From: a virus | Direction: 5' to 3' (one strand) | Virus record (IMG/VR): IMGVR_UViG_3300047444_000617 | Coordinates: 32,001-96,000 of that record | Length of the DNA: 64,000 bases | Shown here: one piece after another, positions 4,939 to 19,790 of the stretch | Position numbering within the stretch: the stretch's first letter is position 1 | Layout of the letters: each line of letters starts with the position of its first letter | Position numbers and translations under genes: made by a program | The notes under the pieces: generated by a model | Seen by the model: only the letters and a program-made list of their open reading frames with translations | Told to the model about the DNA's origin: nothing | Database searches by the model: none

Positions 4939-4967
4939 ACCGTATCGTGGTTACCCATACTCGTCAA
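4939..4967 (-). promoter_or_regulatory. Sigma70-type promoter TTGACG-N17-TACGGT
   Basis: Hexamers and spacing read directly. Confidence 0.65.
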
Positions 4968-4969
4968 GC

Positions 4970-5950
4970 GATTCATGAGCACCACTTGCACAGGCTCGCG
5001 AGCCCTGCCTGCCCCCAGGTTACGCACTCCCCCAACCCCCCGATCCCCCAATTCCCCGAATCCCCCGGCCACTGTGACACTGTCCGGTTCCTACAACCGG
5101 TGCGCTGCGCGGCTGTCCAGGCCCCTATTCTCTGGCAATTCGCATTTAAGGGTCGGGGGGTCCGTATATTTATTCATTGGGCTTACACTATTGACAGACC
5201 ACATGTCAACCCCTCTAGCCCTTGACTTTCAAGCCGCGCACTTCCCATCGGTATCTGCACCCTTGATCTGCGTGTGAGCTGCACCACACTGAGCAGCGAT
5301 GCACACCGGGCGCTCCCTGTCAACACTATGCACGCATGAATATTATGCAGCCAATTCGCCTTTATTCACGGTTAGGCCACTGCCCAATTCGCCTAATTGA
5401 AAGCCTGACAATAGGCCCCGGACTTTGGTGATGTTGCACGCTTTGTAGCAACTCGACAGATGGTGGCCGATCAATTCGCAGTATTGACATGAGGGTGAGT
5501 GTGTGCAGTCGCATGGCTGGCGTGCCCGTGGCAGTGGTGTGTCTGTCTGTGTAGTGGCTAGCAGTGGGGAGCCTTCCCCCGGCCCGAAATGGTGACCAGG
5601 GTGGGAGGCTGGATGCATGGGTGTGGGCATGTCGTGGGGCGCGCTAGGGCACGGGCAGGGGTGGGCAGAGTTCGCGTCCGTGGATGAGTGTGCGCGTGCC
5701 CTATGTGCCTCCGTACGGCGTGCGTATCGCCGGATGGATCCCTCGCAGCGAGGCTGTCTTCTCAAGTACTCCGCTCACGTGCTGCGGGTGGACATGTGCA
5801 CGGAGGGACTGCACGCGGTGAGCCGTGGCCAGGTGTGGCACGCACGCCACGGGACGGCATGGGTGTCTCTGTATCCCCGTGGGGGAGGCAAACACGAGAA
5901 AGCCCCTCACCGGCCCGAGAATGGGCGGTGAGAGGCTTTGTAGGGGAGTG
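4970..5950. other. Approximately 1-kb non-coding region (candidate genome terminus / packaging or regulatory region)
   Basis: No credible ORF, locally AT-richer, CAATTCGC x4, inverted TTGACA/TGTCAA pair at 5191-5209. Confidence 0.5.
5898..5939 (-). terminator. Intrinsic terminator-like hairpin
   Basis: AAAGCCCCTCACCG...CGGTGAGAGGCTTT immediately downstream of ORF ending at 5957. Confidence 0.6.
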
Positions 5951-5956
5951 CTGGCG

Positions 5957-6445
5957 TTACCGGACGTCTACGGGGTGCGCGGCGTTGTACGCGTCGCGTA
6001 GGGCCTTGAACGCGGCCCACACTTCGTGCCCGTTGGTCTGCGGGCCGATCCCGTGGCCGAAGCTGGCGGAGTTCGCCACGGTGCACAGGAACGACTCCCC
6101 GCGTCCGTGTGCCCGGTGCGCTTCCATATCGGCCGCGCTGATCACGTAGCCGCAGGATCCCCGGTCGCCCGGAAGCGACTCCCGGCACTCCCATGAGGTG
6201 ATTTCGTCGTTCTCCACCACCGGCCGGAGAACGGTGGACGTCGTCCACGTGTGGGCAGGGTCAAGGCCGTTCGCCTCACACTGCGCGGCCGAGTAGCTGT
6301 GTCGGTGCGCGTGCAGTCCGGCGGAAGGCTGCACGCCGCAACGGTCGCAGGTGGAGAAGTACCCGGGGGTGGGCGGCTCACTGTCGTACGTGCACTCACG
6401 GGTGCAACCGGTGTTGACGCACTGCGGGGCGGTGGTGGTGATCAT
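5957..6445 (-). CDS. Cys-rich hypothetical protein
   Basis: ATG 6445 preceded by the CCCCACACCAGGAGG element; several Cys pairs. Confidence 0.65.
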   Translation of the reverse strand: MITTTAPQCVNTGCTRECTYDSEPPTPGYFSTCDRCGVQPSAGLHAHRHSYSAAQCEANGLDPAHTWTTSTVLRPVVENDEITSWECRESLPGDRGSCGYVISAADMEAHRAHGRGESFLCTVANSASFGHGIGPQTNGHEVWAAFKALRDAYNAAHPVDVR

Positions 6446-6492
6446 GTTCTGTGTCCTCCTGGTGTGGGGTCGGTTGTTGGGGAGTGTACGGG

Positions 6493-6756
6493 TCAGTTGG
6501 CGGTGGAGTCGTACAGGGAGCATCCGGGGGCGTGGTGCTTGTTGGCCAGGCTGCCCCCGTCGACACCCGGGATATCCTCCCCGCATTCCTCGCACGTGTC
6601 GTCGTCGTCGGGGCGGAAATCGTCGGCAATGGTTGCGACCACTTCCGGCATGGTCGAGTGGGGCAGGGATTCCGCGATACGCGCGACCTGCTCATCGGTC
6701 AGGGTGAAACCGGCCCACGCGTTGAGTTGATTGCGGGTGATCATGATTCCGGACAC
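6493..6756 (-). CDS. Hypothetical protein with C-terminal CxxC...H...C zinc motif
   Basis: AGGAGG RBS, GTG 6756; CEECGE...HHAPGC. Confidence 0.6.
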   Translation of the reverse strand: MSGIMITRNQLNAWAGFTLTDEQVARIAESLPHSTMPEVVATIADDFRPDDDDTCEECGEDIPGVDGGSLANKHHAPGCSLYDSTAN

Positions 6757-6781
6757 GGGTACCTCCTGATGGGTTGGTTGG

Positions 6782-7111
6782 TCAGCCGATGCGGAGCACA
6801 AGCGCACGGACGGCGGAGACGTCGTCCAGGGTGGGCACGGGCGTACCGGGCACGGCGGTGCAGTAGGCGACTACGGCGAGTTGAACGGTGGTGCTCACGC
6901 TGCGGGGGTTCTCCCCGGCGCGCAGCCATGCGGACTTGAGAGCGTCGCGCGCCTTAGCGGCCCGCATGGCGTGCGCCTCCTCCTCGGTCATGCCGTAGCA
7001 GTAGACGTGACCGCTACGGGACGACCACACGTGCTCTGCGTGCGCGTACGAGGGACCGGAGAAGAAACAGCCGAGCTTAGGCAGGGTCTGCGCGGGGGTG
7101 CTTGTGATCAT
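6782..7111 (-). CDS. Hypothetical protein
   Basis: GGAAGGA RBS. Confidence 0.6.
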   Translation of the reverse strand: MITSTPAQTLPKLGCFFSGPSYAHAEHVWSSRSGHVYCYGMTEEEAHAMRAAKARDALKSAWLRAGENPRSVSTTVQLAVVAYCTAVPGTPVPTLDDVSAVRALVLRIG

Positions 7112-7174
7112 GGTGTGTGTCCTTCCTGGGGAAGGGGCCGGAGGACGCTCCCCCGGCCCCGGGGTGTGCGAGCG

Positions 7175-7921
7175 TCAGACGGCGAGACCCTGCGCGGTGT
7201 GGAACTTCGCGGCCTGCTTGAACGCGGCGCGGAAGGTGGCGAGGGACGTGGGGGCGACCGTGCGGAAGTCGCGCGCCCAGTGGGGAAGGATGGCGACCTT
7301 CTGATCCTGGAACACTCCACCGGCCGCGATCATCGCGTGATTCTGGCCGCGAGTCTCAGTGGCCAGCGCCTTACGGGCCAGCGGGGAGAACATGCCGGAG
7401 TGCTTGCGGTACGCCGCTTCCTCCCCGTGGCGGTCGACACCGCGACCGGTGCCCGCGTGACCGAAGATGTCGTGCGCGGCGCGGAACATGTCGTTGACGT
7501 CGTCGGAGAAGAAGAAGTGAGACCCGGTCGCGGCGGTCGACATCACGCGCATACGGCCGTTGGCGACGTCGTCGAAGAACAGCCGGGTTCCGCCGGGGGC
7601 GGTGGTGTCGTACGGGTCGGTGTCCTCAACCGAGACCGTGATGCCGAGACCGCCGCGCGACATGGGGGCGGTGATCAGGTCGAACTGACGCTTGGTCTCT
7701 TCCGCCATCGCGCGCCATGCGGCGGGGGCGTTGTTGTCGATGAACGGCAGCGCCATGTACGCCGCGCCGATCTTGGCCACCGCTTCCGGGGCGACGATCA
7801 CGCGGGAGTAGTCCCAGTGGTCACGGGTGTTGAGACCGTTCTGCGCGTTGTAGCGGCGGGCGCCTTCCACCACGGCGGGGACGGGAGAGACGGACAGTGC
7901 GGGGATGTTGGCGGTACGCAT
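7175..7921 (-). CDS. Conserved phage protein with NDMFRAxHDxxGH...GEE...ETRGQN motif (possible zincin-like metal-binding enzyme)
   Basis: Conserved-looking motif series; start-associated element upstream. Confidence 0.7.
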   Translation of the reverse strand: MRTANIPALSVSPVPAVVEGARRYNAQNGLNTRDHWDYSRVIVAPEAVAKIGAAYMALPFIDNNAPAAWRAMAEETKRQFDLITAPMSRGGLGITVSVEDTDPYDTTAPGGTRLFFDDVANGRMRVMSTAATGSHFFFSDDVNDMFRAAHDIFGHAGTGRGVDRHGEEAAYRKHSGMFSPLARKALATETRGQNHAMIAAGGVFQDQKVAILPHWARDFRTVAPTSLATFRAAFKQAAKFHTAQGLAV

Positions 7922-8045
7922 TTCGGGGGCCTCCTGGTGTGGGGCGCTGGTGTGCTGACAGAGAGAACATTACCCGTGTGGGTAACGGTGAAACGGTAAC
8001 CCCGATATATTTTACCGAGATTTGGTGAGCGGCTGTACGGGTGGC

Positions 8046-9026
8046 CTAGCGGGCCAGCACGGCGCGTAGGGCGTCCGCGTAGGTGGTGGGGTGCAGGATG
8101 TCCCCCGCACCCGTGCGGACGTTGTAGAAGCGCGCGGAGTGCCATTCCTCGCCCTTGGGGAAGTCGATGCCGAACGCGCGACTGTCGCTCACGCGGACCA
8201 GTAGCACGCCCCACTCGTTCGGGTGGTCGTACGTGATCGCGTCGGACGCACGGACGTCGTACCCCTCCCCGTCAATGGCCACGTGCGTGACCGTGCGCAC
8301 GTCGGTCCAGTTGCGGCCGGTCGTCTGAAAGTTCGACGGGCGGCGGTCGATGCGGATAACCTCCCCGGCGCCGGTCGTGTCGACGATGCCCCGGCAGTAC
8401 CGTTCGGCGTTCCCGTCCGTGTGAGCAAACTCCTTGTCGGAGTACGGTCCCCACACGTGCCCGGCGTGGTCGCGGTACGACCAAAGGGTGCGGTACTCAG
8501 CGGCCCACACGTACCCGATGGCGTACTGACGCACCCAGGTGTGTACGTCCCCGTTGCCCTGGATCCCGCCAGGCATGTCCCCGTCGTAAATCGTCTCGGT
8601 GCCGAGATACACGTAAAGGTCCCGTCCACCGTTCGCCACGACAGCAGAGACGCGGCGGCCGTCCAGCCAAAGCGGGGAAGCCTCACGCCACGTGCGGGCA
8701 TGCTCCGCACTCGGGTAGTACGTGCCATCGGTCGGGCGGTTCTCCTCCCCCGCGTTGGCGACGTAGTAGGCAACGGTGTCCAGGGGAACAAGCTCCCCGC
8801 CGTGCGTGAGCGTCACGGCCACCAGCTCCCCCGCGCGGGTCAGCACGGTCTGCCCCTGGACCTCCTCGGCGACGCCGAGCCGTACCAGCACCGCGCACGT
8901 GTTGGCGCGGGCGTCGACCACGGACCGGCCGCGCAGAGCGTCTACGGGGGACAGCAGTTCCTCCCCGAACGGTGCGGCGTTGCGCAGCGCTTCGTACTGC
9001 GGGCGGGTGATCGTCTTGCTTGCCAT
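8046..9026 (-). CDS. Hypothetical protein (326 aa)
   Basis: GAGGGAG RBS, long ORF. Confidence 0.7.
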   Translation of the reverse strand: MASKTITRPQYEALRNAAPFGEELLSPVDALRGRSVVDARANTCAVLVRLGVAEEVQGQTVLTRAGELVAVTLTHGGELVPLDTVAYYVANAGEENRPTDGTYYPSAEHARTWREASPLWLDGRRVSAVVANGGRDLYVYLGTETIYDGDMPGGIQGNGDVHTWVRQYAIGYVWAAEYRTLWSYRDHAGHVWGPYSDKEFAHTDGNAERYCRGIVDTTGAGEVIRIDRRPSNFQTTGRNWTDVRTVTHVAIDGEGYDVRASDAITYDHPNEWGVLLVRVSDSRAFGIDFPKGEEWHSARFYNVRTGAGDILHPTTYADALRAVLAR

Positions 9027-9374
9027 GGTGTCTCCCTCGGTCGCCGTCCCCGCTGTCTTGCGGGCGGAGCCCTGAGCCTAGCGGCTGATTACCGTTTGGC
9101 AAGGGGTTTTCGCAGATGGCTTTCTGGACGTTACGCAATCGTGACGTGCGCCCCGGGGCCGGGCGTGGTTCCATGGCACACCTAGGCCCCCACCGGCCAG
9201 CAGCACTCGGCGGGGGCCTTAGTCATGTCCGGGGTCAATGGAGGGGAGGTGAGGGGGATGCAGGCGACACGCCAGCAGGCCAGACGGGGCGAACGCCGGG
9301 AAGGGGTAGGACAACCGGCGGGGACGACCGGCAGGGGGCAGGTGGCCAGAGGGTGCGGGAGGAGGGGAGATCCG

Positions 9375-9504
9375 CCCGCGCGCGAGGGAGTTGAGGCTGT
9401 TGCATCTCCCCGCGCGCGAGGGTTCAAAAATCCGACTGTGACGGCGGATAAAATCCGCTTCCGTCCTGGAGAAGAATCCGACTTCCGATCGGCCAGAAAA
9501 TCCG
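9375..9504. repeat. Direct repeats: CCCGCGCGCGAGGG x2 and phased AATCCG x4
   Basis: Copies at 9375 and 9409; AATCCG at 9429, 9452, 9475, 9499 (23/23/24 bp spacing). Confidence 0.65.
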
Positions 9505-9505
9505 A

Positions 9506-10081
9506 TCAACGGCGGACGAGCGACAGGTGCCGCTTCCGCTTCGGAATCTTCCCGGCGGGCACCAGGAGATATCTGGCTCCGGGGTCCAGCGGGTGCAGGC
9601 GGGCGTAGACGTTGCCGTCCTTGTCGCGCCAGGCGGTGGCGTGCGGGTGCCTGTCGCTCAGCACCCATCGCAGGATTCCCGTGACGATCGTCCGGGCTAC
9701 CGGGCTGCCAGTCGGTTCGTAGACGCCGTGTCCCTTGCCGTTCTGGATGGCGTACCGACCCTCCTTGACCACGGAATCCACCGTGTCCGGCGTGATGTAC
9801 GCGGCGTCAGTTCCGGCCGGTACTTCCACAGCGAAGCAGATGAACTCCGGATCGGAAACCTGGGTGCGCTCCCGGATGTCCTGCCGGGGAAAATCCGGTG
9901 CGTAGACCACGCGGGTCCAGTGGGTGTGCGGGTAGGTATTTCCACGCCAGGTATGGACACCCTCCAACACCCGAAGTCCGGTTCCGGTGTGGACGAGCAT
10001 TCCGGGCCTGAGTGCGTGTGCGACGACCGGGCGGGCGCCCTCGGGTCGGTAGTCCTCGATCCAGTACTCGTCGGTGTTCAT
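9506..10081 (-). CDS. Hypothetical protein
   Basis: Start-associated element and promoter upstream. Confidence 0.7.
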   Translation of the reverse strand: MNTDEYWIEDYRPEGARPVVAHALRPGMLVHTGTGLRVLEGVHTWRGNTYPHTHWTRVVYAPDFPRQDIRERTQVSDPEFICFAVEVPAGTDAAYITPDTVDSVVKEGRYAIQNGKGHGVYEPTGSPVARTIVTGILRWVLSDRHPHATAWRDKDGNVYARLHPLDPGARYLLVPAGKIPKRKRHLSLVRR

Positions 10082-10118
10082 GCGGGCCTCCTGGTGTGGG
10101 GCATGGTGTGGTGTGCCG

Positions 10119-10163
10119 ACATTACTAATCCCCGGAACCGTATGTCAAATGGTTCCGGGGATT
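10119..10163 (-). promoter_or_regulatory. Promoter TTGACA-N18-TAATGT whose -35 lies in the loop of a perfect 13-bp inverted repeat
   Basis: AATCCCCGGAACC (10127-10139) / GGTTCCGGGGATT (10151-10163). Confidence 0.7.
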
Positions 10164-10176
10164 TGCTTGCAATGGA

Positions 10177-10632
10177 CTACTGGAGAGGTCGGAGGGAGCC
10201 CGCGATGTTCCGGCGCAGCAGGCGCCACAGGTGCGAGCGGCTGGCCTTCTTCAGCGCGGGCTCTGGGATCCCGTGGCGGGCCTCCCAGCACTCCTGAACA
10301 CGGCGGTGGAGACCAGTCCAGGCATTTCGCTCGATCAACTCAGCGCAGGCCGCGCAGGCCGCCCAATCCCCCTCGAACGCCTGATCCTTGCCGGTGCGGG
10401 GATCCTTACCGGCGATGAAGTCGTGGACCGGCAGGACGAACGCGGGGGCGTCGGTGTTACAGAAGTCGCAGCGGCCTCGAACCTCGTTGTCATCAGCAAC
10501 CACGGGGACGGCCTTGTGGCCTTGCAGACGGTCCTGCTCGTGGTGGTCCCACGACAGGTTTCCCGTGCCGCGCTCCTCCAGTTTCTCCAGGGGGCGCCGA
10601 CACTCCTTGCAGACCATGGGCGGGGTGCTCAC
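10177..10632 (-). CDS. Zinc-binding hypothetical protein
   Basis: CKEC, CDFC, CAAC motifs; GTGA coupling. Confidence 0.7.
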   Translation of the reverse strand: MSTPPMVCKECRRPLEKLEERGTGNLSWDHHEQDRLQGHKAVPVVADDNEVRGRCDFCNTDAPAFVLPVHDFIAGKDPRTGKDQAFEGDWAACAACAELIERNAWTGLHRRVQECWEARHGIPEPALKKASRSHLWRLLRRNIAGSLRPLQ

Positions 10633-11237
10633 TTGGTCACCTTCTGGCCCGGGGAGATGATACGGAAGAGCGAGCCGTCCTCGGCGGTCAGCGTCTCGCC
10701 CTTCTCCATGTCCTTGATGTGCTCAGCCAGCTCTCCGGAGCGCAGGCCCTTGCGCTGCATCTCATCGGTGAGCTGCCCCCAGGCCGCGTCGCGGGCGCTC
10801 TCCTCGGACCGGCCCATCGTGATCCACGGGCTGTCCTCGTGCTTCCCCCGCGTCTGGGCCAGGAACTGGCGGGCGGTGCTGTCGCGGTTGGCCTTCCACC
10901 AGTTGTTCATGTCGGCGAAGAAGGTGGCCGTCTCGTCGGCGCTATCCAGGCTGGGGAAACTCTCCTCCTGGCCGTCGCGAAGGATGGCCAGAACCTGCTC
11001 GCGGGTGAGTCGGACGTCGAACGTCGGCTCCTCCTGCTTCTCCTCCACGGTGACGCGGAAGGTGCGGGTGGCGTCGGTGCCAGTGCTGTCGTTGACCAGC
11101 ACATCGAGAGCCCACGGCCCCGGCTTCTCCAGGGGGTTGACGAAGTCGACGTTCAGCACGTCCTCGGTGTGCAGGGTCGGCCGGGCCGGGCTCGACAGCA
11201 TGTCGCCGATCAGCTTGCGAAGGCCGAGGAGGTTCAT
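10629..11237 (-). CDS. Hypothetical protein
   Basis: AAGGAG RBS, promoter upstream. Confidence 0.7.
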   Translation of the reverse strand: MNLLGLRKLIGDMLSSPARPTLHTEDVLNVDFVNPLEKPGPWALDVLVNDSTGTDATRTFRVTVEEKQEEPTFDVRLTREQVLAILRDGQEESFPSLDSADETATFFADMNNWWKANRDSTARQFLAQTRGKHEDSPWITMGRSEESARDAAWGQLTDEMQRKGLRSGELAEHIKDMEKGETLTAEDGSLFRIISPGQKVTK

Positions 11238-11278
11238 CGTGTGCTCCTTGTCAGGGCGCCGTAGTGGTTACAGGGACG

Positions 11279-11307
11279 AACCTAGTGGCGCCCTTAACGC
11301 TTGTCAA
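11279..11307 (-). promoter_or_regulatory. Promoter TTGACA-N17-TAGGTT
   Basis: Consensus HrdB-type hexamers. Confidence 0.8.
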
Positions 11308-11321
11308 GTGGTCTGTTCAAA

Positions 11322-11537
11322 CTACTTGCTTGTCGTGTACTTGCGCTGGACGACACGACCCCGGGGAGGCTGCTCAACCTCGACGGTCTCCCCCGGCTTG
11401 ACACTGACGGCCTCGACGTCGGTGGCTCCCTCGGCCCGCAGCCTGGCCATACGGTGCTCGGCGCTGCCCCTGTCGTACGCCACGGCGGACACCTTGCGTC
11501 GGCCGCCTTCTGTCCACACGACCCTCAAGTTCTCCAT
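11322..11537 (-). CDS. Hypothetical protein
   Basis: GAGGAG RBS, ATG 11537. Confidence 0.6.
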   Translation of the reverse strand: MENLRVVWTEGGRRKVSAVAYDRGSAEHRMARLRAEGATDVEAVSVKPGETVEVEQPPRGRVVQRKYTTSK

Positions 11538-11545
11538 GGTGCTCC

Positions 11546-12391
11546 TCACGGGTTATCGCGCCAGCGGTCGGCCTTGGGCAGGGTCTCGTTGGCCAACCGG
11601 CACACGGTCCAGGTGGCGTCCTCCAGACCGACCCCCTGCGTCCGCGCACCCTCGAACATCTCGACGGCCTTGCGGGCGACACCCTGATCGCGGTAGCGCC
11701 ACCCCAACGAGCCGAAGGTGTGGTCATAGTCGGGGTCCATCACGCGGGCACCCCAGGTGGTGATCGGGACTTCCTTGCCCTCGACGTAGGTGCGCTCTTC
11801 GGTGTAGCGCATGACCTGGACGCGGTCGCCGGTGCTCAGGGTCAGCGTCTCGACGACCTCCTCACCCTTGTGCTCGCGGGCGGGTTCCTCGCCAGGCGCG
11901 TATCCGAACATCGAGTAGAAGGGCGGCAGCTCCTTCTCCAGGCCGCGCTTCCACCGCTCGCGCATGATGTCGCCCAGGGAGTACCAGTTCCCCAACAGCT
12001 CCAGCAGCTCGGGGGTGATGTCGTAGTGGCCGAGGCGGACGATGCGATTGTCGACGACCTTGCCCTTGCGCTTGAGGGTGAGTGCCGCGCGGCCGTCCTG
12101 CCCGTTGTCGGTGCGGAACACGGCCGACTTGTCGGTGACCTTGGTGACGATCTTGCGGCGACTCCAGGTGGCGTATCGCTCCTCCACGATGTCGCCGACG
12201 ACGAGATCCTTCACCAGCACCTCGCCCGGCTTGAGTGCGGGCCGCTTCTTCGCATCCTCGGCCTGCTGGCGGATGCGCGGGGCCAGGAAGTTGAACCACA
12301 AGGACGCCTGTACGTCCGCCTTGGGGCGGCTCCACCCGAGGTCGTTCATGTGGTCGGCGAGTTCCTTGATGATCTCTTCATCGGTTGGCAT
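11546..12391 (-). CDS. Hypothetical protein
   Basis: ATG 12391 (MPTDEEII) with AGGAG RBS. Confidence 0.7.
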   Translation of the reverse strand: MPTDEEIIKELADHMNDLGWSRPKADVQASLWFNFLAPRIRQQAEDAKKRPALKPGEVLVKDLVVGDIVEERYATWSRRKIVTKVTDKSAVFRTDNGQDGRAALTLKRKGKVVDNRIVRLGHYDITPELLELLGNWYSLGDIMRERWKRGLEKELPPFYSMFGYAPGEEPAREHKGEEVVETLTLSTGDRVQVMRYTEERTYVEGKEVPITTWGARVMDPDYDHTFGSLGWRYRDQGVARKAVEMFEGARTQGVGLEDATWTVCRLANETLPKADRWRDNP

Positions 12392-12404
12392 GTCGTGCTC
12401 CTGA

Positions 12405-12686
12405 TCAGTGAGTGTGAATGGGTGTGGCCGTCCAGTAAGTGTGTGTGGTCCCGGGCTCAGCATCATGGGGCTCCCAGTCACTGACGTGCAGTCCGTAGAA
12501 GCCACGCACCTCACCCATGCCCCAAGCCTTCGCACCATCCGGGTCGTCGGCAGAGATTTCGCTGTTGGCGCCTTTAGGCAAGCCCTTGAGTCCCTGGCCG
12601 AATAGGAGTAGCCAGGTCGCGAGGTCCGTACCTTCGTCCACGTAGGCCAGCGTCCAGTACGGATGGCCGGGGGGAGGCAATGGCAT
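12405..12686 (-). CDS. Hypothetical protein
   Basis: AGGAG RBS, MPLPPPGHPYW... Confidence 0.55.
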   Translation of the reverse strand: MPLPPPGHPYWTLAYVDEGTDLATWLLLFGQGLKGLPKGANSEISADDPDGAKAWGMGEVRGFYGLHVSDWEPHDAEPGTTHTYWTATPIHTH

Positions 12687-12699
12687 CGGAGGCTCCTGA

Positions 12700-12942
12700 T
12701 CAGACGAGGGTGGTGGCGTTGGCGACGCGCGGGCAGCCCTGCGCAATGTAGTCCTGCCAACTGACAATGTTGTTTCGCGTGGCCTGGATGCGGGTCATGA
12801 CCAGCCGCTGTCGCTTGACTGTCCGCTCCCCCTTCCAGCGCCTCTCCAGGGCGCACAGCTCACGCTCGCGCTGCATCAGGAGCTTGTCGGCGGCGGCCTG
12901 GCGCTCGTCCTTCTGGTACGACCGGAACGGGCTGACAGCCAT
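12700..12942 (-). CDS. Basic hypothetical protein
   Basis: Start-associated element and promoter upstream. Confidence 0.65.
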   Translation of the reverse strand: MAVSPFRSYQKDERQAAADKLLMQRERELCALERRWKGERTVKRQRLVMTRIQATRNNIVSWQDYIAQGCPRVANATTLV

Positions 12943-12982
12943 CTCGCGCTCCTCCTGGTGTGGGGTGCTGCTTGCAAGAGAA

Positions 12983-13012
12983 AAACTACAGGGACCGCTC
13001 GACTCATGTCAA
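12983..13012 (-). promoter_or_regulatory. Promoter TTGACA-N18-TAGTTT
   Basis: Hexamers read directly. Confidence 0.7.
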
Positions 13013-13061
13013 GCGATCCCTGTGAAGTGCTTGCTTGTGGCGGTCTCCTGGTCCATGGTGA

Positions 13062-13208
13062 CTACTCCTGGTCTCGTATCGCGGCGTGCTTGACGGTCTT
13101 GCGGGTGCGCTGCTTGCGGGGGCGGGAATCGTGTCCTCCGGCCGCTCCGCTGCGCCGACGCTCCTGGACGGCGCGGACGTACTCGGGGACGTTCTGCTGG
13201 GCGTTCAC
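13062..13208 (-). CDS. Small Arg-rich protein (48 aa; missed by ORF track)
   Basis: AGGAG RBS; VNAQQNVPEYVRAVQERRRSGAAGGHDSRPRKQRTRKTVKHAAIRDQE. Confidence 0.65.
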   Translation of the reverse strand: MNAQQNVPEYVRAVQERRRSGAAGGHDSRPRKQRTRKTVKHAAIRDQE

Positions 13209-13225
13209 GGTCACTCCTGGGCGCA

Positions 13226-13260
13226 GTAGGGGAGATTCCAGGTTATTGAATCTCCCCTAC
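13226..13260 (-). terminator. Perfect 13-bp hairpin
   Basis: GTAGGGGAGATTC / GAATCTCCCCTAC just after stop at 13271. Confidence 0.65.
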
Positions 13261-13270
13261 CGGTTACCAA

Positions 13271-14128
13271 CTACTTGCGCTTGGCCGCGCGCTTCTTCGC
13301 CTCTTCGATCACATCCGCCCAGGTCTTGCCCTCCTTCAGAGCAATGGCCAGGGCGACACGCTCGACGTCCTCGGCACGCTTGTCGCTGTTGCGCCACGGC
13401 TCGAAGTGGTCGGCGAGCCAGCTCCTGGCTGCTGCGAGGGTCTTGATGGTCTCGAACGTGTCGTGTGCGGGCTGGGTGACCATCCGGCCGCCTCGCCGGA
13501 CTTGCCGCTCCGGTACGTGCCAGTCGAAGACCTCCAGCGGGCTGCCGTCAGGGTTGGCGATGGCCTTGGCGGCCTTCTTCGCCTCGCGCTCAGCCTTCTT
13601 CGCCTCGCGTTCCAGCCGGGCAGCCTTGCGCTCCGGCGCCTCCAGCCGTGTCTTCTGCTTGAGGACGTCGACCGGGGCCCACGAAAAGCAGACCGTGCAC
13701 GCCTTCTCGCCCGCGAGGTCGACCAACTCCTCGGCCGTGAGGCCGGACTGCTCGACGAGCCACGCGTAGCGGGTGTCGGGGAAGCACGTGGTGCAGTCCT
13801 GGTCCTTGTGGACGTGTCCGTTGGTGTTGTCGACGAGGTAGTACCGGGTCCAGCGGCGATCGTTGTACTGCGCCTCGCGGGGGTAGACCTCGGTACCGAG
13901 GATTTCCCAGATGCGCTCCTGGAGCGCCTTGTGCTCATCGACCAGCTTGGCGCGGTTCTCCGGCGAGTTGTCCGGGAGCAGGGAGGCGTAGGAACCGGGC
14001 TCGACCTCGTCGATGTGGGACACCCTGGCGTTGATGCGGTGCTGCTGGTTGGTCAGTTCGGCGATCTTGCCGTAGGCGTCGGCCAACTTGGTGTCGATCT
14101 CGACGGGGGTGGCGGTGCTGAAGTCCAT
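13271..14128 (-). CDS. Conserved actinophage protein with GHVH...CxxC...CxxC zinc motif
   Basis: WTRYYLVDNTNGHVHKDQDCTTC...AGEKACTVCF. Confidence 0.75.
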   Translation of the reverse strand: MDFSTATPVEIDTKLADAYGKIAELTNQQHRINARVSHIDEVEPGSYASLLPDNSPENRAKLVDEHKALQERIWEILGTEVYPREAQYNDRRWTRYYLVDNTNGHVHKDQDCTTCFPDTRYAWLVEQSGLTAEELVDLAGEKACTVCFSWAPVDVLKQKTRLEAPERKAARLEREAKKAEREAKKAAKAIANPDGSPLEVFDWHVPERQVRRGGRMVTQPAHDTFETIKTLAAARSWLADHFEPWRNSDKRAEDVERVALAIALKEGKTWADVIEEAKKRAAKRK

Positions 14129-14157
14129 CCGTTGCCTCCTGGTGTGGGGCGTCTTGC

Positions 14158-14197
14158 TGACATGGGAGACGTTACGGGCTCACGTCTCCCATGTCAA
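14158..14197 (-). promoter_or_regulatory. Promoter TTGACA-N17-TAACGT overlaid by a perfect 15-bp inverted repeat
   Basis: TGACATGGGAGACGT (14158-14172) / ACGTCTCCCATGTCA (14182-14196). Confidence 0.75.
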
Positions 14198-14218
14198 GCG
14201 AGTTCACAGAATCACTTG

Positions 14219-14509
14219 TCAGTACTTCTCCAGGTGGTTGCCCGTGCGCTCCTCGTAGACGCGGCGCTTGCGTGCGATGGCCTGCACGCGCAACTCCAGG
14301 CGCTTGGTCCACTCCGCCACTTCGGCGGGAGCGACTACGCCGATCTCGCACTGGCGTAGCCACAGCACAGGGTCGAATCGCTCGCTGGTACCGGTGAGTG
14401 CGTCGGCGATGTCGAAGGCGAGGGCGCGGCGGGCGTCCCTGTCCACATCAGAGTCGGCGATGGCTGCCGACAAGGTCTCGTAGTCGCCTCGGTTCATACC
14501 GCTGGCCAT
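14219..14509 (-). CDS. Hypothetical protein
   Basis: Start-associated element upstream. Confidence 0.7.
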   Translation of the reverse strand: MASGMNRGDYETLSAAIADSDVDRDARRALAFDIADALTGTSERFDPVLWLRQCEIGVVAPAEVAEWTKRLELRVQAIARKRRVYEERTGNHLEKY

Positions 14510-14552
14510 GATCTACCTCCTGGTGTGGGGTGCGTTTGCGTGGAGAGTACTA

Positions 14553-14590
14553 CGGGCCACCTGACCGTGTTGCAGTGGTCAGGTGGCCCG
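14553..14590. terminator. Perfect 14-bp inverted repeat (terminator and/or operator)
   Basis: CGGGCCACCTGACC / GGTCAGGTGGCCCG. Confidence 0.6.
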
Positions 14591-14608
14591 CTGGGGGTGC
14601 TGGAAGGG

Positions 14609-15466
14609 TCAGGCGGCGATGCCCGTGCGCTGGCCGCCGATGGCCTTGTTGCTGCCCAGACGGGCGGAGCGGGCAGCGTCGTCACCGGCGGAGCGCGCGC
14701 TGTAACTGGTCGACGACGTCGGCTTGTAGCCCTTCCAAGAACCCCTGGCGGTGGAGTGCTCGGTGTAGTAGCCGTTGATCTCCGCCTTCTTGTCCATCAG
14801 GACCAGCTCGGCGGACACCTTGACCTCCTGGGCGGTGCCGTCGGCCGCCTCCTCGTGGATGGTGACGGTGGAGTTCTTGGCCGCCTTCAGTGCCTCCTCG
14901 CGGGCCTCGCGCAGCCGGTAGGCGATGCGCTGGGTGAAGGAGTCGTAGAAGTTGGCGCGGGCGGTGCGTCCGTCCACCGGCCGCTCCTCGTAATCCGTGT
15001 AGACGTCGCCCCAGTAGTCGCGCTTCTTCACCGCGCGGCTGACCGTCTCCTTCTTGTACTCGCCCTTCTTCAGCCACGCGGTGGCGGCCTCGGTCATCTG
15101 GAAGAGCAGGGAGGCGTACAGCACCTCGACGACCTCGATGTCGGAGGGCATGCCGAACGCGATGACGTAGGTGGAGTTCTGGGCGATGTTGATCGTCAGG
15201 TCGTTGTTGCGTGAGACGGCGTGGAAGAGGTTGACGAGCCGGGCGTTGTTGTTCTTGCGGACCTGCCCGATGGTGATCGTCTTGTGGGTAGGCTGCTCGC
15301 GCTGCTCCTTCTTCGCCGTGTGGCGCCGGGCAACGGCCAGGTCGATGCTGGTCTGCGTGGCGAGGGCCTGCGCCTTCCTCATGGCCGCGTCGGCTTCCTC
15401 GGGGGTGCCCGCGTTCTCGGCCTGGTTGAGGATCTTGGCCAGCTTGTCGAGCATGCGGTCGCTCAT
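14609..15466 (-). CDS. DUF2786-domain protein (Rv0184-like)
   Basis: N-terminal MLDKLAKILNQAE...TPEEADAAMRKAQAL is the DUF2786 signature. Confidence 0.8.
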   Translation of the reverse strand: MSDRMLDKLAKILNQAENAGTPEEADAAMRKAQALATQTSIDLAVARRHTAKKEQREQPTHKTITIGQVRKNNNARLVNLFHAVSRNNDLTINIAQNSTYVIAFGMPSDIEVVEVLYASLLFQMTEAATAWLKKGEYKKETVSRAVKKRDYWGDVYTDYEERPVDGRTARANFYDSFTQRIAYRLREAREEALKAAKNSTVTIHEEAADGTAQEVKVSAELVLMDKKAEINGYYTEHSTARGSWKGYKPTSSTSYSARSAGDDAARSARLGSNKAIGGQRTGIAA

Positions 15467-15506
15467 TGGGTGCTCCTCCTGGTGTGGGGGCTTAGTGGTG
15501 AGTGGA

Positions 15507-15941
15507 TCAGGCTTCGACGTGCTCGTGGATGTCGAGCAGGTTCTCCGGGAGGGTCTCGGTGTACTTCACCCTCGGCGCACCCTTCCTGGCGTCGTCCCAG
15601 TTGCTGGAAGCGGTGGAGAACGACCTGCGCTCGAAGAGGGTCACCAGGCGCTCGCGGAGGACTTTGGTGCCCGCCGCGCCCTCGTTGCGACTGACGAGTT
15701 TCTGGGCCTCGTAGTAGTCCATGTGGCGGGCCAGCTCGGCGATGACGTCCACCCGGTTCATGGCCTGCACGCGAGCCCGGTAGCCCGGGGCCTTCTCGGT
15801 CTGCATGTCCTTGAGGGCGTTGCGTACTGCGCGCGTGTGGGCGTTGCCGAGCTGCTGCTGCGTGCGCTTGCCCTGCTCGGTTCGGATGACCCGCTCTTCG
15901 CCACATACGCGGATCGTGGTCTCGCGGTAGTTCCTGTCCAC
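15507..15941 (-). CDS. Basic hypothetical protein
   Basis: Start-associated element upstream. Confidence 0.65.
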   Translation of the reverse strand: MDRNYRETTIRVCGEERVIRTEQGKRTQQQLGNAHTRAVRNALKDMQTEKAPGYRARVQAMNRVDVIAELARHMDYYEAQKLVSRNEGAAGTKVLRERLVTLFERRSFSTASSNWDDARKGAPRVKYTETLPENLLDIHEHVEA

Positions 15942-15983
15942 GGGGACCGCTCCTCCTGGTGTGGGGGCTGGCTGATGAGGACG

Positions 15984-16013
15984 AATCTACGGGTCACTCT
16001 TACCGATTGTCAA
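15984..16013 (-). promoter_or_regulatory. Promoter TTGACA-N18-TAGATT
   Basis: Hexamers read directly; spacer starts with ATCGGTAAG. Confidence 0.75.
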
Positions 16014-16027
16014 GCGGTATCGCCAAA

Positions 16028-16363
16028 TTACTTTCTGGGCTGTCCACCGCTGGGGATGCTGATCACGCGCTTGCCCCGGCGGTGGTCGAACCGCATCTCC
16101 TTGGCCCGGTCGGCAGCGATCTCGTCGTAGATCTCGTTCACCGCCTTGACGGCGTCATTGATGGTGGTGAACGGCCCGCCGGTGCGCTCGGTCAGCCGAG
16201 GGGTGTGCAGGTCGAAGTACCAGCCGACGTCCTCGGCCGTGATGTCATCCTCGGTGGGGTTCTCGACGACCTGGTCGGCAGTGACGCGCCAGATGGCCCC
16301 GAGGCGCCCGAACTCATCGGTGGGGTAGATGATGCCTTCGCCGCCGACCTTGAGGGTGAGCAT
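16028..16363 (-). CDS. Hypothetical protein
   Basis: AGGAG RBS. Confidence 0.7.
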   Translation of the reverse strand: MLTLKVGGEGIIYPTDEFGRLGAIWRVTADQVVENPTEDDITAEDVGWYFDLHTPRLTERTGGPFTTINDAVKAVNEIYDEIAADRAKEMRFDHRRGKRVISIPSGGQPRK

Positions 16364-16405
16364 GGGGTGTTCTCCTGTCCAGAGGGTGGTAAGCGGTACT
16401 TGCGG

Positions 16406-16633
16406 TCAGCCGTGGTGCTTCAGTGCGTCCATGGCGGCCTGGGCGTCCTTGAACGCGCTGTTTCGGATGGTCTTGATGACCTCCCACACGAAGAGGTCGT
16501 CGGGGTCGACGGGGAACATATCGTCGGTGACTGCCTTATCCCGCAGGCCCGCATTGATCAGGCGCGCGACGGCGTTGCGCAGCCGGGCCTCGCGGTTCGG
16601 ATCCATGGGTGCGGTCATGGTGCGGCCTTTCAT
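16406..16633 (-). CDS. Hypothetical protein
   Basis: ATGA coupling. Confidence 0.6.
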   Translation of the reverse strand: MKGRTMTAPMDPNREARLRNAVARLINAGLRDKAVTDDMFPVDPDDLFVWEVIKTIRNSAFKDAQAAMDALKHHG

Positions 16634-17148
16634 ATGTTGGCGAGGGCGCCGAACGAGACACCGTGGCGGGTGAAGGAGTCGGTCAGTAGCAGACCGATCT
16701 CCGGCCCCATGACCTCGCGCACCATGTGCAGGAAGGTGCTGGCGAACACGGCGTCGTGATGCTCTCCGCGCGGCGCGAGGTGGTGGCTCAACTCGTGCAG
16801 GATTACCAGTTCCCGCATAGCCCAGGATGACTCACCCGGCTTGTGGTCGGGGATGGCGAACACCTGGCCCAGCGACTCGTAGTGGGCGAACCGGTCGCCC
16901 TTGCGCTGGCGGACGCGGACAGGCAGGACAGTGCGCTCCGGCCAGGTACTGCGGACCCAGTTCAGGGCCAGCACGGCGTCGATGTAGCGCTGGATGCTGT
17001 CCAGGTCGCCGAACTTGCGCTCCCGGGGAACGAGGAGGCTGGATCCGTAGAAGTCGAAGGTGGGGACGTCGACACCGGCGAGGGAGTCGAGCGTGCGGCG
17101 GACCATCTTCTCGGCCTCGTAGACCTTGGACTTCTGGTTGTCGCGCAC
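16630..17148 (-). CDS. TIGR04338 / Rv0185-family HExxH metallohydrolase
   Basis: MRDNQKSKVYEAE, RKFG, VRVRQRKG, AHYE, WAMRELVILHELSHHL, H..VF. Confidence 0.85.
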   Translation of the reverse strand: MRDNQKSKVYEAEKMVRRTLDSLAGVDVPTFDFYGSSLLVPRERKFGDLDSIQRYIDAVLALNWVRSTWPERTVLPVRVRQRKGDRFAHYESLGQVFAIPDHKPGESSWAMRELVILHELSHHLAPRGEHHDAVFASTFLHMVREVMGPEIGLLLTDSFTRHGVSFGALANI

Positions 17149-17150
17149 CG

Positions 17151-17501
17151 TCAGGACTCCTTGCCAGTGAGAGCAAAGATGACCTTGCGCTTGGCCTCGG
17201 CGTAACCGAGCTTGAAGCCCTGCTCCTTGGCCGCGTTGACCAGGTTCTCGGTGTGGGAGCGGGCGCCGCGCTCGGAGGTGCCACTACCCATGATCAGGAC
17301 GATGTTGTCGGAGATCTCGTACTCCAGTGGACGGCGAGGGTGCTCGATGACGGGGCCCTTGTCGCGGCCCGCGTTGTAGATGCCGTCCAGGGCGCGGCGC
17401 AGGTCGTCAATGTTCAGGTCCGCTCCCTGGCCGACCAGCTCGATGACGGCCGCGTACTTCTTCTCAAGGGCAAGGTAGTCGCGGACGCTGTTATCGGTCA
17501 T
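17151..17501 (-). CDS. Hypothetical protein
   Basis: Start-associated element upstream. Confidence 0.7.
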   Translation of the reverse strand: MTDNSVRDYLALEKKYAAVIELVGQGADLNIDDLRRALDGIYNAGRDKGPVIEHPRRPLEYEISDNIVLIMGSGTSERGARSHTENLVNAAKEQGFKLGYAEAKRKVIFALTGKES

Positions 17502-17546
17502 GGTGTGCTCCTCCTGGTGTGGGGGCTGGTCTTGGTGACGAGAGAT

Positions 17547-17574
17547 ACGGTACTCAGGAATCGGTAGCTGTCAA
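17547..17574 (-). promoter_or_regulatory. Promoter TTGACA-N16-TACCGT opening the accessory region
   Basis: Perfect -35, plausible -10; hairpin at about 17592-17627 upstream. Confidence 0.6.
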
Positions 17575-17643
17575 GCCGTATCCCAAAGAGACAGGCCGCG
17601 AGCCGCTGACATGCGACTCACGGCCTGGGGGAGGCTGCAGGAA

Positions 17644-18033
17644 TTACTTCGTGGCGGTCGGAGTTACGTCCGTCGTGTCCTTCGGGCACGGAATGGTCAC
17701 GTGCGCGGAGTGGGTGTACTTGAGTCCGTTCACGACCGCGTAAGGCGTGTCCGTGGATGTGGGCGCCGGGGACGGACCGACCACGAAAGTCACCTTGCAC
17801 AATCCGCCGGGATTCTGCGTCGCAGGTGCCTTTACGTACTTGATGACCGTGCGCGTAGGTTCCGGCGAGACGTCCGAAGAGAAATCCGATACGGATCTGG
17901 TGGTCTCCTGTACAGAAATTCCGATATGAAGTCCGCCAGAAGTCTGGTTCGGAATGCTAGCGATTCCGACTGCGGGAATGGCGACGAGAACTGCTGCGGC
18001 TGCTGCGGCCTTCAGGCCGTGGGGTATGGGCAT
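17644..18033 (-). CDS. Secreted/membrane-anchored Thr/Pro-rich protein
   Basis: N-terminal KAAAAAAVLVAIPAVGIA signal-like segment; two Cys. Confidence 0.6.
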   Translation of the reverse strand: MPIPHGLKAAAAAAVLVAIPAVGIASIPNQTSGGLHIGISVQETTRSVSDFSSDVSPEPTRTVIKYVKAPATQNPGGLCKVTFVVGPSPAPTSTDTPYAVVNGLKYTHSAHVTIPCPKDTTDVTPTATK

Positions 18034-18083
18034 AATCCGACTCCAATATCCTGCGGAAGAGTGAGAGGTACCTGCGGTATTTT

Positions 18084-18239
18084 CTACCCGCCGAGAAGCA
18101 CCGTACCGAAGCCGTCGCAGTGCACGCAGTCGGCCCTGTCGCGGTCCTCCCCCGTGCCGTGGCACCGCTTGCACTCGACCTCGACGTCAGCGTCCTCGTC
18201 GCTGTCGGCGGAAGACACTGCATTCACGTACGTGCTCAT
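18084..18239 (-). CDS. Small DnaJ-type zinc-finger protein (51 aa; missed by ORF track)
   Basis: CKRCHGTG...CVHCDGFG (two CxxCxGxG repeats). Confidence 0.7.
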   Translation of the reverse strand: MSTYVNAVSSADSDEDADVEVECKRCHGTGEDRDRADCVHCDGFGTVLLGG

Positions 18240-18248
18240 GAGAAGTAC

Positions 18249-19790
18249 TTACTCTCCCTGTTCGTTGAAGAAAGTTGGTACATCGACGACCTCAGCGTCG
18301 ATGAATCCGCTCGACTGCTCGATCATCCGGTCCGCTGACATCGGACGGTCGAGCGTTGTCATCTGCTCCCCCGCGTCCCGCCCGAAGATCCGGCTGATCA
18401 TCCCCGCCTGGGCGCCGTTCCCCTTGGCTTCCAGTTTCACGGAGAAGCCCTCCTGCTCCAGTTCGGTCTTGACCTTGACCAGTTTCTGAAGCCGGTCGAT
18501 CTCGCCGGACAGGTTCGGATCCGCGTATCCGCCGGTCATGTCCTCGACCATCTTCATGAAGAGCACCCGCTGCGCCTGCATCTCGATGAGCGAGTTCTGC
18601 AGCGACTGCATCTGCTGCTTGCTCTTCACCTGTACCGGGATGTCGTACGCGCAGTTGCTGTGCTGGTCGTACGCCGGGCACTTCGAGGACAGGAAGCAGG
18701 AGGAGCACTGCCGCATGGACTGGCTGCGCACCGTGACCAGGGGGACGTCACGTTCCTTGTTGAGCCCGTCCTCGGGGTCGGTGTAGGTCTCCTTCTCCTG
18801 CACCAGGCCGATGACCGGCAAGTTGGTACGCGGCCGGTCCTTCCTGGGCATGGGAGTTGATACGCCGTTGAGCGGTTCGGAGTCCGCCGTACCAACTTCA
18901 CCCCCCTGCAATTGAGCGAAACCGGAAAGTAGCCCGGAGGGGGAGGTAGTAACTGCTTCGGGTGAGTTCGGGCGGTGCTGCTCGATGGAGGCCGCCAACT
19001 GCTGCCACGACCAGATGGTGAAGCGCAGGACCTCGTCGTTGTCGCCGTCCTCGATCTTGTCGGCGTCGAAGCCCGCTTCTATGAATAGCGTGCGGTGCCT
19101 CTTTCGTGCCTGCTCCTTGTACTTCTTCGGGTAGCGCTTCAATTCCCGGCCGGTCCACACAATGGTGTCCCCGTATTGGCTGGGGGAAAGCCAGGAGGTC
19201 GACGCCACGCTGTCCCAGGTGACGGCTGCCATTTCCGCTGGCTTCGTCATGGCGACGCCGTGGAGCAGCGTGCCGTATTTCCTGGTGATCTCGTTGAGGA
19301 CCGGTGTGAGATTCCGTCCGTCGAGATCCGTCTGGGTAACTCCGACGCGCTTGTATCGCTGGGCGAGGCGGTCGAGTTCTTCGACTCCCCATTCCGCGTG
19401 CCATATGGGAAGGAATTTGTCTTCCGGGATGTCCTCCCAGAAGTCCTCCCGCATTGCGGCTATCCATTCGCGTCCGAGAACGACCGCGTCGAACTCGGAC
19501 ACCATATGAAGCGAGTCGATGTTCTGCTGGACGAACGCCATGTAGTGCGCGGCGATTTCCTTCAGTTCAGCGACGGAGTACTTGTCGTCCTCGGCCTTGT
19601 TCACCGTGTAGGCGCCGGAGTCCAGGAACACCTTCTGGTTGGGCAGGTAGTGGTCCTGGATCAGCCAGGGCCTGGAGAACTTGGTGCGTCGCCGCAGCCC
19701 CATGTACGACAAGGAGACGTTCTCCACGCCTTCCTCGGCCAGCATCTTCCGCCAGCCTGGAATCTCAGAGCCTCCCAGAAAGAGGTGCAC
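18249..19790 (-). CDS. TGT/DpdA-like (queuine tRNA-ribosyltransferase fold) protein fused to a Cys4 + coiled-coil C-terminal domain
   Basis: VFLDSGAYT, FLPIWH, LLHGVAMT, DSVASTSW follow the TGT-like motif order; C-terminal CSSC..C..C. Confidence 0.65.
   Translation of the reverse strand: MHLFLGGSEIPGWRKMLAEEGVENVSLSYMGLRRRTKFSRPWLIQDHYLPNQKVFLDSGAYTVNKAEDDKYSVAELKEIAAHYMAFVQQNIDSLHMVSEFDAVVLGREWIAAMREDFWEDIPEDKFLPIWHAEWGVEELDRLAQRYKRVGVTQTDLDGRNLTPVLNEITRKYGTLLHGVAMTKPAEMAAVTWDSVASTSWLSPSQYGDTIVWTGRELKRYPKKYKEQARKRHRTLFIEAGFDADKIEDGDNDEVLRFTIWSWQQLAASIEQHRPNSPEAVTTSPSGLLSGFAQLQGGEVGTADSEPLNGVSTPMPRKDRPRTNLPVIGLVQEKETYTDPEDGLNKERDVPLVTVRSQSMRQCSSCFLSSKCPAYDQHSNCAYDIPVQVKSKQQMQSLQNSLIEMQAQRVLFMKMVEDMTGGYADPNLSGEIDRLQKLVKVKTELEQEGFSVKLEAKGNGAQAGMISRIFGRDAGEQMTTLDRPMSADRMIEQSSGFIDAEVVDVPTFFNEQGE

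Follow-up and report, generated by a model that had tools for sequence, protein, structure and literature searches.

What might a phage gain from placing the same 15 nucleotides, unchanged, just before the start codons of nine of its early genes? This question is raised by the virus record IMGVR_UViG_3300047444_000617 (IMG/VR), which is 110,248 bp long and whose ends repeat over 126 bp. We analyzed bases 32001-96000 of the record (the window, 64 kb; all positions below refer to it unless stated otherwise), in which the sequence CCCCACACCAGGAGG joins a nine-nucleotide extension, CCCCACACC, to a perfect Shine-Dalgarno (SD) hexamer, AGGAGG. A first-pass annotation of the window had pointed to nine perfect copies ahead of early genes and had proposed that they serve as a translational enhancer, as a site for an RNA-binding protein, or as a micro-homology linker for the shuffling of gene cassettes. 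The 15-mer proved to be a real and conserved leader module that is linked to gene starts. A role in translation, or as a site in RNA, fits the evidence best, and we consider it somewhat probable (roughly 0.55) that the element forms the centre of a standard leader for translation initiation, acting in the mRNA of the early lytic genes in a temperate actinophage.

Copies, position and conservation of the element

An exact search of the window returned nine perfect matches to CCCCACACCAGGAGG, at the same nine coordinates as annotated (Table 1), and none was found in 100 dinucleotide-preserving shuffles. The annotated positions therefore stand; what the annotation lacked was the strand, as all nine copies, like nearly all genes of the phage, are on the minus strand. 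The whole record contains these nine copies and no others, which bears out the earlier remark that the core of the genome has no perfect copy. All copies are on the gene strand, are confined to 11 kb of the non-structural part of the genome, and are placed in short leaders or intercistronic spacers. Each ends 5-10 nt before the start codon (eight ATG, one GTG) of a minus-strand open reading frame (ORF) with a high signal of G+C at third codon positions, again as annotated. The 9-mer CCCCACACC occurs 11 times on the gene strand, where nine copies are fused to AGGAGG, and twice on the other strand; without AGGAGG, it is at background level.

An exact-word scan of viral contigs recovered a clade of contigs of up to ~107 kb with several copies each. 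Our comparison set consists of this genome and nine related contigs (G001-G009), 10 genomes in total. All nine relatives carry the element at orthologous genes, where the architecture of promoter, leader and word recurs. Five of them have 9-13 copies at ≤2 mismatches, clustered and on one strand, and four further relatives have 3-9 copies that match a degenerate consensus exactly. Perfect copies account for 9/9 in this genome and number 0-5 in the relatives. The consensus is C-Y-Y-C-N-N-A-N-C, with zero spacing to an invariant AGGAGG and a G-poor C/A tract on its 5′ side, and 78 of the 105 early-region genes with a perfect AGGAGG in the 10 genomes have this pattern fused to it at zero spacing. 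The distance from the SD to the start codon is 5-10 nt, with a mode of 8 (65 unique sites). When 88 unique AGGAGG contexts were taken without any pre-selection, the best kept positions were C4, C9, A7 and C2, and the weakest were positions 5 and 8. Positions -11 to -18 from the SD are 85-95% A or C in the 65 sites, which had been selected for the pattern. Between genomes, identity at orthologous sites is 85% for the 9-mer and 59% for the 10 nt that precede it.

Gene families 1, 2, 3, 4, 9, 16 and 18 carry the element in most of the 10 genomes, and genes found in a single genome carry it too. It is absent from more distant homologues of gene 7175-7921 (52% identity). Among the matches listed from a search of 185,579 bacterial species genomes, the 15-mer gave single, scattered hits in unrelated taxa. 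Concerted evolution of the 5′ flank within genomes left a weak signal only (0.457 versus 0.425 identity). A full-text literature search for the words themselves returned no relevant paper.

At copy 7 only, reading by eye revealed an ATG directly 5′ of the word (10079-10105, minus strand). It opens a mini-ORF, ATG-CCC-CAC-ACC-AGG-AGG-CCC-GCA-TGA (Met-Pro-His-Thr-Arg-Arg-Pro-Ala), the stop codon of which overlaps the ATG of gene 9506-10081.

Table 1. Window coordinates of the 15-mer copies and of the features associated with them.
Feature	Position	Strand	Context
Copy 1	17510-17524	-	8 nt before ATG of gene 17151-17501
Copy 2	15952-15966	-	10 nt before GTG of gene 15507-15941 (gene in this genome only)
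Copy 3	15475-15489	-	No promoter; after stop of gene 15507-15941; 8 nt before ATG of gene 14609-15466 (DUF2786/DUF7168)
Copy 4	14516-14530	-	6 nt before ATG of gene 14219-14509
Copy 5	14135-14149	-	6 nt before ATG of gene 13271-14128 (phrog_15500)
Copy 6	12951-12965	-	8 nt before ATG of gene 12700-12942
Copy 7	10087-10101	-	5 nt before ATG of gene 9506-10081 (gene in this genome only)
Copy 8	7930-7944	-	8 nt before ATG of gene 7175-7921 (phrog_3170)
Copy 9	6455-6469	-	9 nt before ATG of gene 5957-6445; no clear promoter; 27 nt past upstream stop
Degenerate copy CAACCCATCAGGAGG	6762-6776	-	Before GTG of gene 6493-6756
Promoter-like TTGACA-N16-TACCGT	17547-17574	-	Ends 22 nt upstream of copy 1
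Promoter-like TTGACA-N18-TAGATT	15984-16013	-	Ends 17 nt upstream of copy 2
Promoter-like TTGACA-N17-TAACGT	14169-14197	-	Ends 19 nt upstream of copy 5
Promoter-like TTGACA-N18-TAGTTT	12983-13012	-	Ends 17 nt upstream of copy 6; lies within a hairpin of 16 pairs with a T-run behind it (12988-13023)
Promoter-like TTGACA-N18-TAATGT	10119-10148	-	Ends 17 nt upstream of copy 7; -35 inside inverted repeat 10130-10160
Weak promoter candidate (poor -35, TAGTAC)	14547-14575	-	Behind hairpin 14554-14589, upstream of copy 4; TCGACA-N18-TACGCT in relatives
Weak promoter candidate TTTCAC-N15-TAATGT	7967-7993	-	Upstream of copy 8; unrelated promoter at this gene in relatives
Terminator-like 15-pair hairpin	17592-17627	-	Just upstream of the block's first promoter
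477-bp insertion unit (one repeat plus gene 15507-15941)	15490-15966	-	Flanked by direct repeats (15-mer plus AGC)

Promoters, leader RNA and a proposed role in translation initiation

In the mechanism that we propose, host RNA polymerase would start at sigma-70-type promoters, and the transcript would begin ~9-14 nt upstream of the word. The G-poor, C/A-rich tract of ~12-22 nt that includes CCCCACACC would be single-stranded and would offer the 30S subunit a landing or standby site, and the perfect AGGAGG, 5-10 nt before the start codon, would then fix the ribosome. Four C residues may pair with the G residues of the SD to form a weak hairpin (about -3 to -7 kcal/mol). Since this hairpin is weaker than the duplex of the SD with the anti-SD, the site may be partly masked and thereby tunable. 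The same module would head some internal cistrons that lack a promoter.

Promoters were searched for with the actinobacterial pattern TTGACN-N16-19-TANNNT and a shuffle control; a scanner tuned to E. coli flagged only two of them. The pattern occurs 12 times on the gene strand and not at all on the other strand (shuffles, 0.72 ± 0.84), and 10 of the 12 sites are 34-45 nt before a gene start. The early block (5957-17574) has eight predicted promoters, six strong and two weak candidates, and the word follows seven of them. Five strong promoters of the host type (TTGACA-N16-18-TAnnnT) end 17-22 nt upstream of a copy, the copies at 14516 and 7930 are behind weaker candidates, and the copies at 15475 and 6455 follow an upstream gene with no clear promoter. 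This near-fixed distance of most copies behind host-type promoters is one of two features on which the first-pass annotation was silent, the other being the complementarity of the C-tract to the SD. With transcription predicted to start 7-8 nt past the -10 element, the word would lie at about +10 to +25 of leaders that would be ~30-38 nt long. The promoterless copies, which follow stop codons both here and in the relatives, still have the C/A tract 5′ of the word, which indicates that the word is tied to the start site and not to the promoter. No sigma-70-family protein was detected in the genome, with controls that worked, and no T7-type RNA polymerase was detected either, in a search in which the control genomes also gave no match for that family.

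Several early promoters are within inverted repeats (12988-13023, 10130-10160, 14554-14589 and 14164-14190, minus strand), the sequence of which is different at every site. These hairpins are kept at orthologous sites with some compensatory changes (in family 4, four of 14 pairs have double changes, and the stem of G007 is wholly different). Several are followed by a T-run and look like terminators that overlap the next promoter. A 582-bp gene-free gap (17502-18083), which ends in a strong terminator-like hairpin and the first early promoter, parts the early block from the region of a second, late word that is discussed below. A single early-type promoter, TTGACG-N17-TAAAGT (43758-43786, minus strand), can be found in the replication region, far from the early block; its leader starts like the early leaders (CTCCTCATCAGCC) and ends in ACAGGAGG.

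The predicted structure of the start regions is low. Compared with the other 140 genes, those with the motif have an unpaired probability of 0.57 versus 0.46 and a minimum free energy (MFE) of -15.5 versus -22.6 kcal/mol (p = 0.007 and 0.002), and the upstream G content is 0.21 at motif starts versus 0.31 at the others. The annotation was right that anti-SD pairing explains AGGAGG and not the extension CCCCACACC. In the 3′ tail of actinobacterial 16S rRNA, the bases facing the extension would be U-rich, and extended anti-SD pairing of the 9-mer was ruled out by inspection against this general tail. Pairing to internal 16S segments (strands of helix 26 and helix 45) was likewise rejected on the general structure of 16S rRNA, in which those strands are double-stranded and would have the wrong geometry with the SD helix.

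The C-tract CCCC is complementary to bases of the SD, such that it can pair with GG(A)GG around the loop ACACCA. This hairpin appears in 8/9 MFE folds of the nine leaders and is the MFE structure in 91% of the 65 unique sites (mean -6.2 kcal/mol, 29-nt context). The AGGAGG:CCUCCU duplex exceeds this, at -8.6 kcal/mol. RNAalifold predicts the same four pairs. Every change seen in the C-tract is from C to T and keeps the pairing, with CUCC exactly complementary to GGAG and CCUC to GAGG. The divergent relative G006 has CUCC-N5-GGAG with a loop that is one base shorter, and in both G006 and G008 the interval from C-tract to SD differs by ±1 nt with complementarity kept. At 49 of 64 sites, the stem continues into the flanking bases (25.7 ± 3.5 with shuffled flanks). 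The closing pair is G-C at 25 sites, A-U at four, U-A at four and G-U at two, and it is unpaired at 30, many of which fit an alternative register with a bulged A. Double changes occur within orthologous families, from T-A to A-T in family 2 and from GC/AGC to GG/ACC in family 18. Together, these predictions are suggestive of a mini-hairpin that contains the SD. A search of Rfam 15 with positions 5000-18500 gave no match at E ≤ 1.

Such a hairpin could itself be the signal. A phage or host RNA-binding protein, or a nuclease, might read its loop and bulge (A7, C9, A10, A13) as a translational operator, for which the MS2 coat-protein operator and the T4 RegA and RegB targets are models, and the whole early block could thereby be switched off or on together. 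On this account, a factor that reads the anti-SD:SD mini-hairpin in every early lytic unit would silence the block in the lysogen, or shut it off after the early phase, by way of translation and not transcription. We regard the operator, which could coexist with an initiation leader, as possible though on the unlikely side, and the regulon-wide switch as equally tentative. The positions of the predicted loop are invariant although pairing does not need them, the copies are identical in 9/9 cases here as against 0-5 in the relatives, the closing pairs covary, and the stem is kept in two ways, as CCCC with a bulged A or as CUCC without one. In T4, early mRNAs are shut off via an extended site around the GGAG of the SD (PMC1702504). 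Against these points, no candidate reader of the word was found with Pfam and PHROGs among the 29 proteins of the block and its neighbours, where the Pfam matches are to DUFs and one GH25, and no RegB or RegA homologue was found in the genome (PF10715, PF01818), for which the control genomes gave no match either. Moreover, the loops of G006 are degenerate and yet the module is kept, and the hairpin evidence is suggestive only.

The gene content of the phage bears on a further reading, in which the 15-mer acts as DNA. The phage has a G+C content of ~65% and four tRNA genes, and among cultured phages it is closest to BRock, Alone3 and LuckySocke, which infect Streptomyces (~51% DNA polymerase identity). 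It encodes a tyrosine integrase, a large serine recombinase, and an HTH_31/DUF5753 regulator that adjoins a DUF397 gene, a pair that is typical of Streptomyces-like actinomycetes. These genes mark the phage as temperate, and its host is probably Streptomyces-like. The region of lysogeny and regulation, which also encodes a GerE/TrmB-like regulator, is outside the window (genome positions 4155-5231 and 5556-6794 on the minus strand; 14208-15071, 15061-15261 and 23194-24402 on the plus strand).

In a temperate phage, the 15-mer might be an asymmetric, oriented DNA site, placed between genes and shortly after the lytic promoters, for a phage repressor that blocks transcription in the lysogen, in the manner of a stoperator. 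The integrase, serine recombinase and HTH regulators suit this reading, as does the classification of G006 as a provirus. The word would lie at about +10 to +25 after 7/8 predicted promoters of the block (five strong and two weak; the eighth, a strong one, has no word), promoterless copies in a single orientation would fit a roadblock, and the inverted repeats that overlap the promoters all differ, leaving the 15-mer as the only shared element. However, DNA binding would need neither zero-spacing fusion to the SD nor a start distance appropriate for ribosomes. The distance from the word to the -10 element ranges from 16 to 24 nt, and the ±1-nt variation between C-tract and SD with complementarity kept, the tolerated C-to-T changes and the G-T closing pairs are better suited to RNA. 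Other host-type promoters, at 11307, 4967, 803 and 43786, have no word, and the whole record has no copy near the integrase and regulator region. HTH_31/XRE-type regulators, which are the kind found here, usually bind palindromes. We therefore consider a DNA site improbable.

Several observations weigh against an initiation leader as the full explanation. The hairpin is a weak one, in the core of which compensatory change is impossible, given the fixed SD side. When the flanks are shuffled with their composition preserved, the probability of SD pairing is already 0.66, compared with the observed 0.78. The covariation in the flanks is confounded by relatedness, such that the shuffle tests are inflated, and ~10 of 16 distinct flank states pair. 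The near-invariance of C1, C4, A7 and C9 and the 9/9 perfect copies are not explained by an enhancer that works purely by composition; a trans-acting factor may also read these four positions. The strong promoter at 11279-11307, inside the block, has an ordinary leader without the word, and the transcription starts are predicted ones. Finally, the temperate nature of the phage keeps alive the alternative of a silencer that acts on DNA downstream of its lytic promoters.

Mosaic junctions and the late octamer

The annotation had also asked whether cassettes are gained and lost at the motif. The clearest case in favour is gene 15507-15941, which is not in the nine relatives and lies between two 18-bp direct repeats (Table 1); the homology to G007 and G001 extends into the first of these and picks up again at the second. 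At gene 7175-7921, the sequence becomes homologous to the relatives from 2-13 nt ahead of the word, and the upstream promoter has no relation to theirs. In total, 21 breakpoints fall inside 15-mer windows, where 6.2 would be expected under uniform placement. However, clustered homology breakpoints in the 10 genomes occur at 54% of motif starts versus 63% of other starts (Fisher p = 0.18). Since breakpoints are found at all gene starts alike, the excess at the 15-mer is the usual effect of gene boundaries, and mosaic junctions are no commoner at the motif than at other starts. Replacements such as gene 9506-10081 come with a promoter of their own and do not have their ends at the word. A linker would need neither fusion to the SD nor polarity on the sense strand, and a search for relatives of gene 15507-15941 found none that would show the context of a donor. 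The linker proposal retains weak support from a single insertion bounded exactly by two copies. Although the word can serve recombination as a seam, it does not seem to exist for that purpose, and it is very unlikely that it is mainly a micro-homology linker for swaps of early-gene cassettes between phages.

The second word is the octamer CTTCATAC, which the annotation had described as excluded from the region of the early word. This exclusion holds. There are 35 copies on the gene strand and one on the other strand, with none between window positions -1899 and 20258. Copies within the window are on the minus strand, for example at 20251-20258, 22729-22736 and 61789-61796. The octamer is locked to the reading frame as CTT-CAT-ACN, and as CTTCATACC (Leu-His-Thr) it accounts for 28 of the 30 Leu-His-Thr tripeptides in called genes. 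It is common to G001, G002, G003, G005 and G007. In G004, G006, G008 and G009, the late word is CTTAATACC (a switch to CTTAATAC), with 24-37 copies that are in frame and encode Leu-Asn-Thr, and in G004 the switch has taken place at 16 of 17 alignable orthologous late sites. A concerted one-base change of this kind across many unrelated proteins argues for a signal at the nucleotide level with a co-evolving reader.

It had been speculated that one factor with two classes of site, or one G-rich RNA pairing via G-U wobble, reads both the early CCCCACAC and the late CTTCATAC as forms of CYYCAYAC. The two words do occupy mutually exclusive regions, are strictly on the sense strand, and have CAYAC in common. 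The four relatives with CTTAATACC have a late word that no longer fits CYYCAYAC, and their early word keeps C at position 4. In addition, the late word is invariant and locked to the reading frame, whereas the early word, at a spacing of 5-10 nt, has no fixed frame and is variable at positions 5, 6 and 8. Positions 6 and 8 of the early word accept A or G (CCCCAGACC, CCCCGAAAC, CCCCGCAAC, CCCCACAGC), which is incompatible with pairing to one G/U-rich RNA, and the genome yielded no G-rich complement of any weight. A shared reader is not supported by these comparisons, which largely refute it, and we give it almost no credence.

Known analogues and wider meaning

The closest described analogue of the 15-mer, as the annotation had it, is the start-associated sequence of cluster K mycobacteriophages (PMC3203893). 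These are short, asymmetric repeats with an SD core, located 3-8 nt upstream of starts, with the consensus GGGATAGGAGCCC and about 10-20 copies per genome in one orientation in the non-structural part (PMC3203893); their function is still open (PMC3203893, PMC12699233). The cluster K word is essentially absent from host genomes. Both elements are asymmetric words that contain the SD and precede starts (by 5-10 nt in 9/9 copies here), both occur in one orientation and in comparable numbers (~10-20 per genome in cluster K; nine here and 9-13 or 3-9 in the relatives), and both are conserved across related phages before different families of genes, all of them non-structural. The outer parts can pair in each, as GGG...CCC in cluster K and as CCCC...GGAGG here. 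The differences are equally clear. GGGATAGGAGCCC is unrelated to CCCCACACCAGGAGG, as are the phage lineages and the hosts; the SD would be in the stem here and in the loop in cluster K; and most copies here are at a near-fixed distance behind host-type promoters. About half of the cluster K sites have 17-bp inverted repeats upstream, named ESAS, with a shared consensus (PMC3203893), whereas the inverted repeats upstream of most copies here differ in sequence at each site and enclose the -35 or overlap the promoters. On this comparison, the 15-mer is an analogue and not a member of the cluster K sequences.

Other known systems resemble the element in part. In E. coli, C/A-repeat tails of 16-18 nt placed 5′ of a structured ribosome-binding site strongly raise translation, and C/A-rich regions are enhancers (PMC5934652). 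Like these tails and the C/A regions targeted by GcvB (PMC5934652), the G-poor tract of ~12-22 nt is directly 5′ of a partly structured ribosome-binding site. The C/A enhancers are defined loosely, by composition, and are enterobacterial, whereas the element has nine identical copies and several invariant positions and is known here from sequence. The stoperators of cluster A mycobacteriophages (L5 gp71), as far as they are described through the citation in PMC3203893, are genome-wide sites bound as DNA by the immunity repressor. According to the same description, they resemble our sites in being numerous and asymmetric, in following the direction of transcription, and in occupying short gaps between genes, near gene starts, in a temperate actinophage; they would differ in that ours are within 11 kb, are fused to AGGAGG, vary in an RNA-like manner, and are not near the integrase or regulators. 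Targets of T4 RegB/S1 (PMC1702504) and RegA operators also have an extended conserved context around GGAG in early SDs. The T4 context is A-rich and 3′ of GGA, whereas the conserved part here is C/A-rich and 5′.

Among cultured phages, BRock (KX925554.1, 6000-11300) has small plus-strand early genes with C/A-rich leaders and a recurring ACGAAAGGA before the start. These leaders have no word equivalent to the 15-mer. C/A-rich early leaders may be general in the wider phage group. A megablast search of the early block against 50,697 phage records gave no match, and the core matched in a thymidylate synthase stretch only. The early-block proteins are almost all of unknown function; among the 29 proteins of the block and its neighbours, Pfam and PHROGs gave matches to DUF2786/DUF7168, three PHROGs of unknown function and one GH25. 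An HELSHH motif that resembles a zinc-metallopeptidase site is present in one conserved early protein of 172 aa (16630-17148, minus strand), which has no Pfam match.

In our best reading, the element is a new spelling of a kind of sequence, the start-associated sequence, that has itself been known since 2011. Such sequences are still unexplained, and there is now a clean example in a different phage lineage. The short leaders, predictable 5′ ends and canonical host-type promoters provide experimental handles, and the anatomy of the element can be mutated part by part, as it consists of a C/A tail, a C-tract complementary to the SD and a six-base loop. The 10 natural genomes constitute a graded series of variants, and the system may be amenable to culture, since one of the relatives is a provirus from the genome of an isolate. 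Streptomyces would also gain a practical expression part if the element is truly a standard start site, strong or tunable, for the high-GC Actinomycetota.

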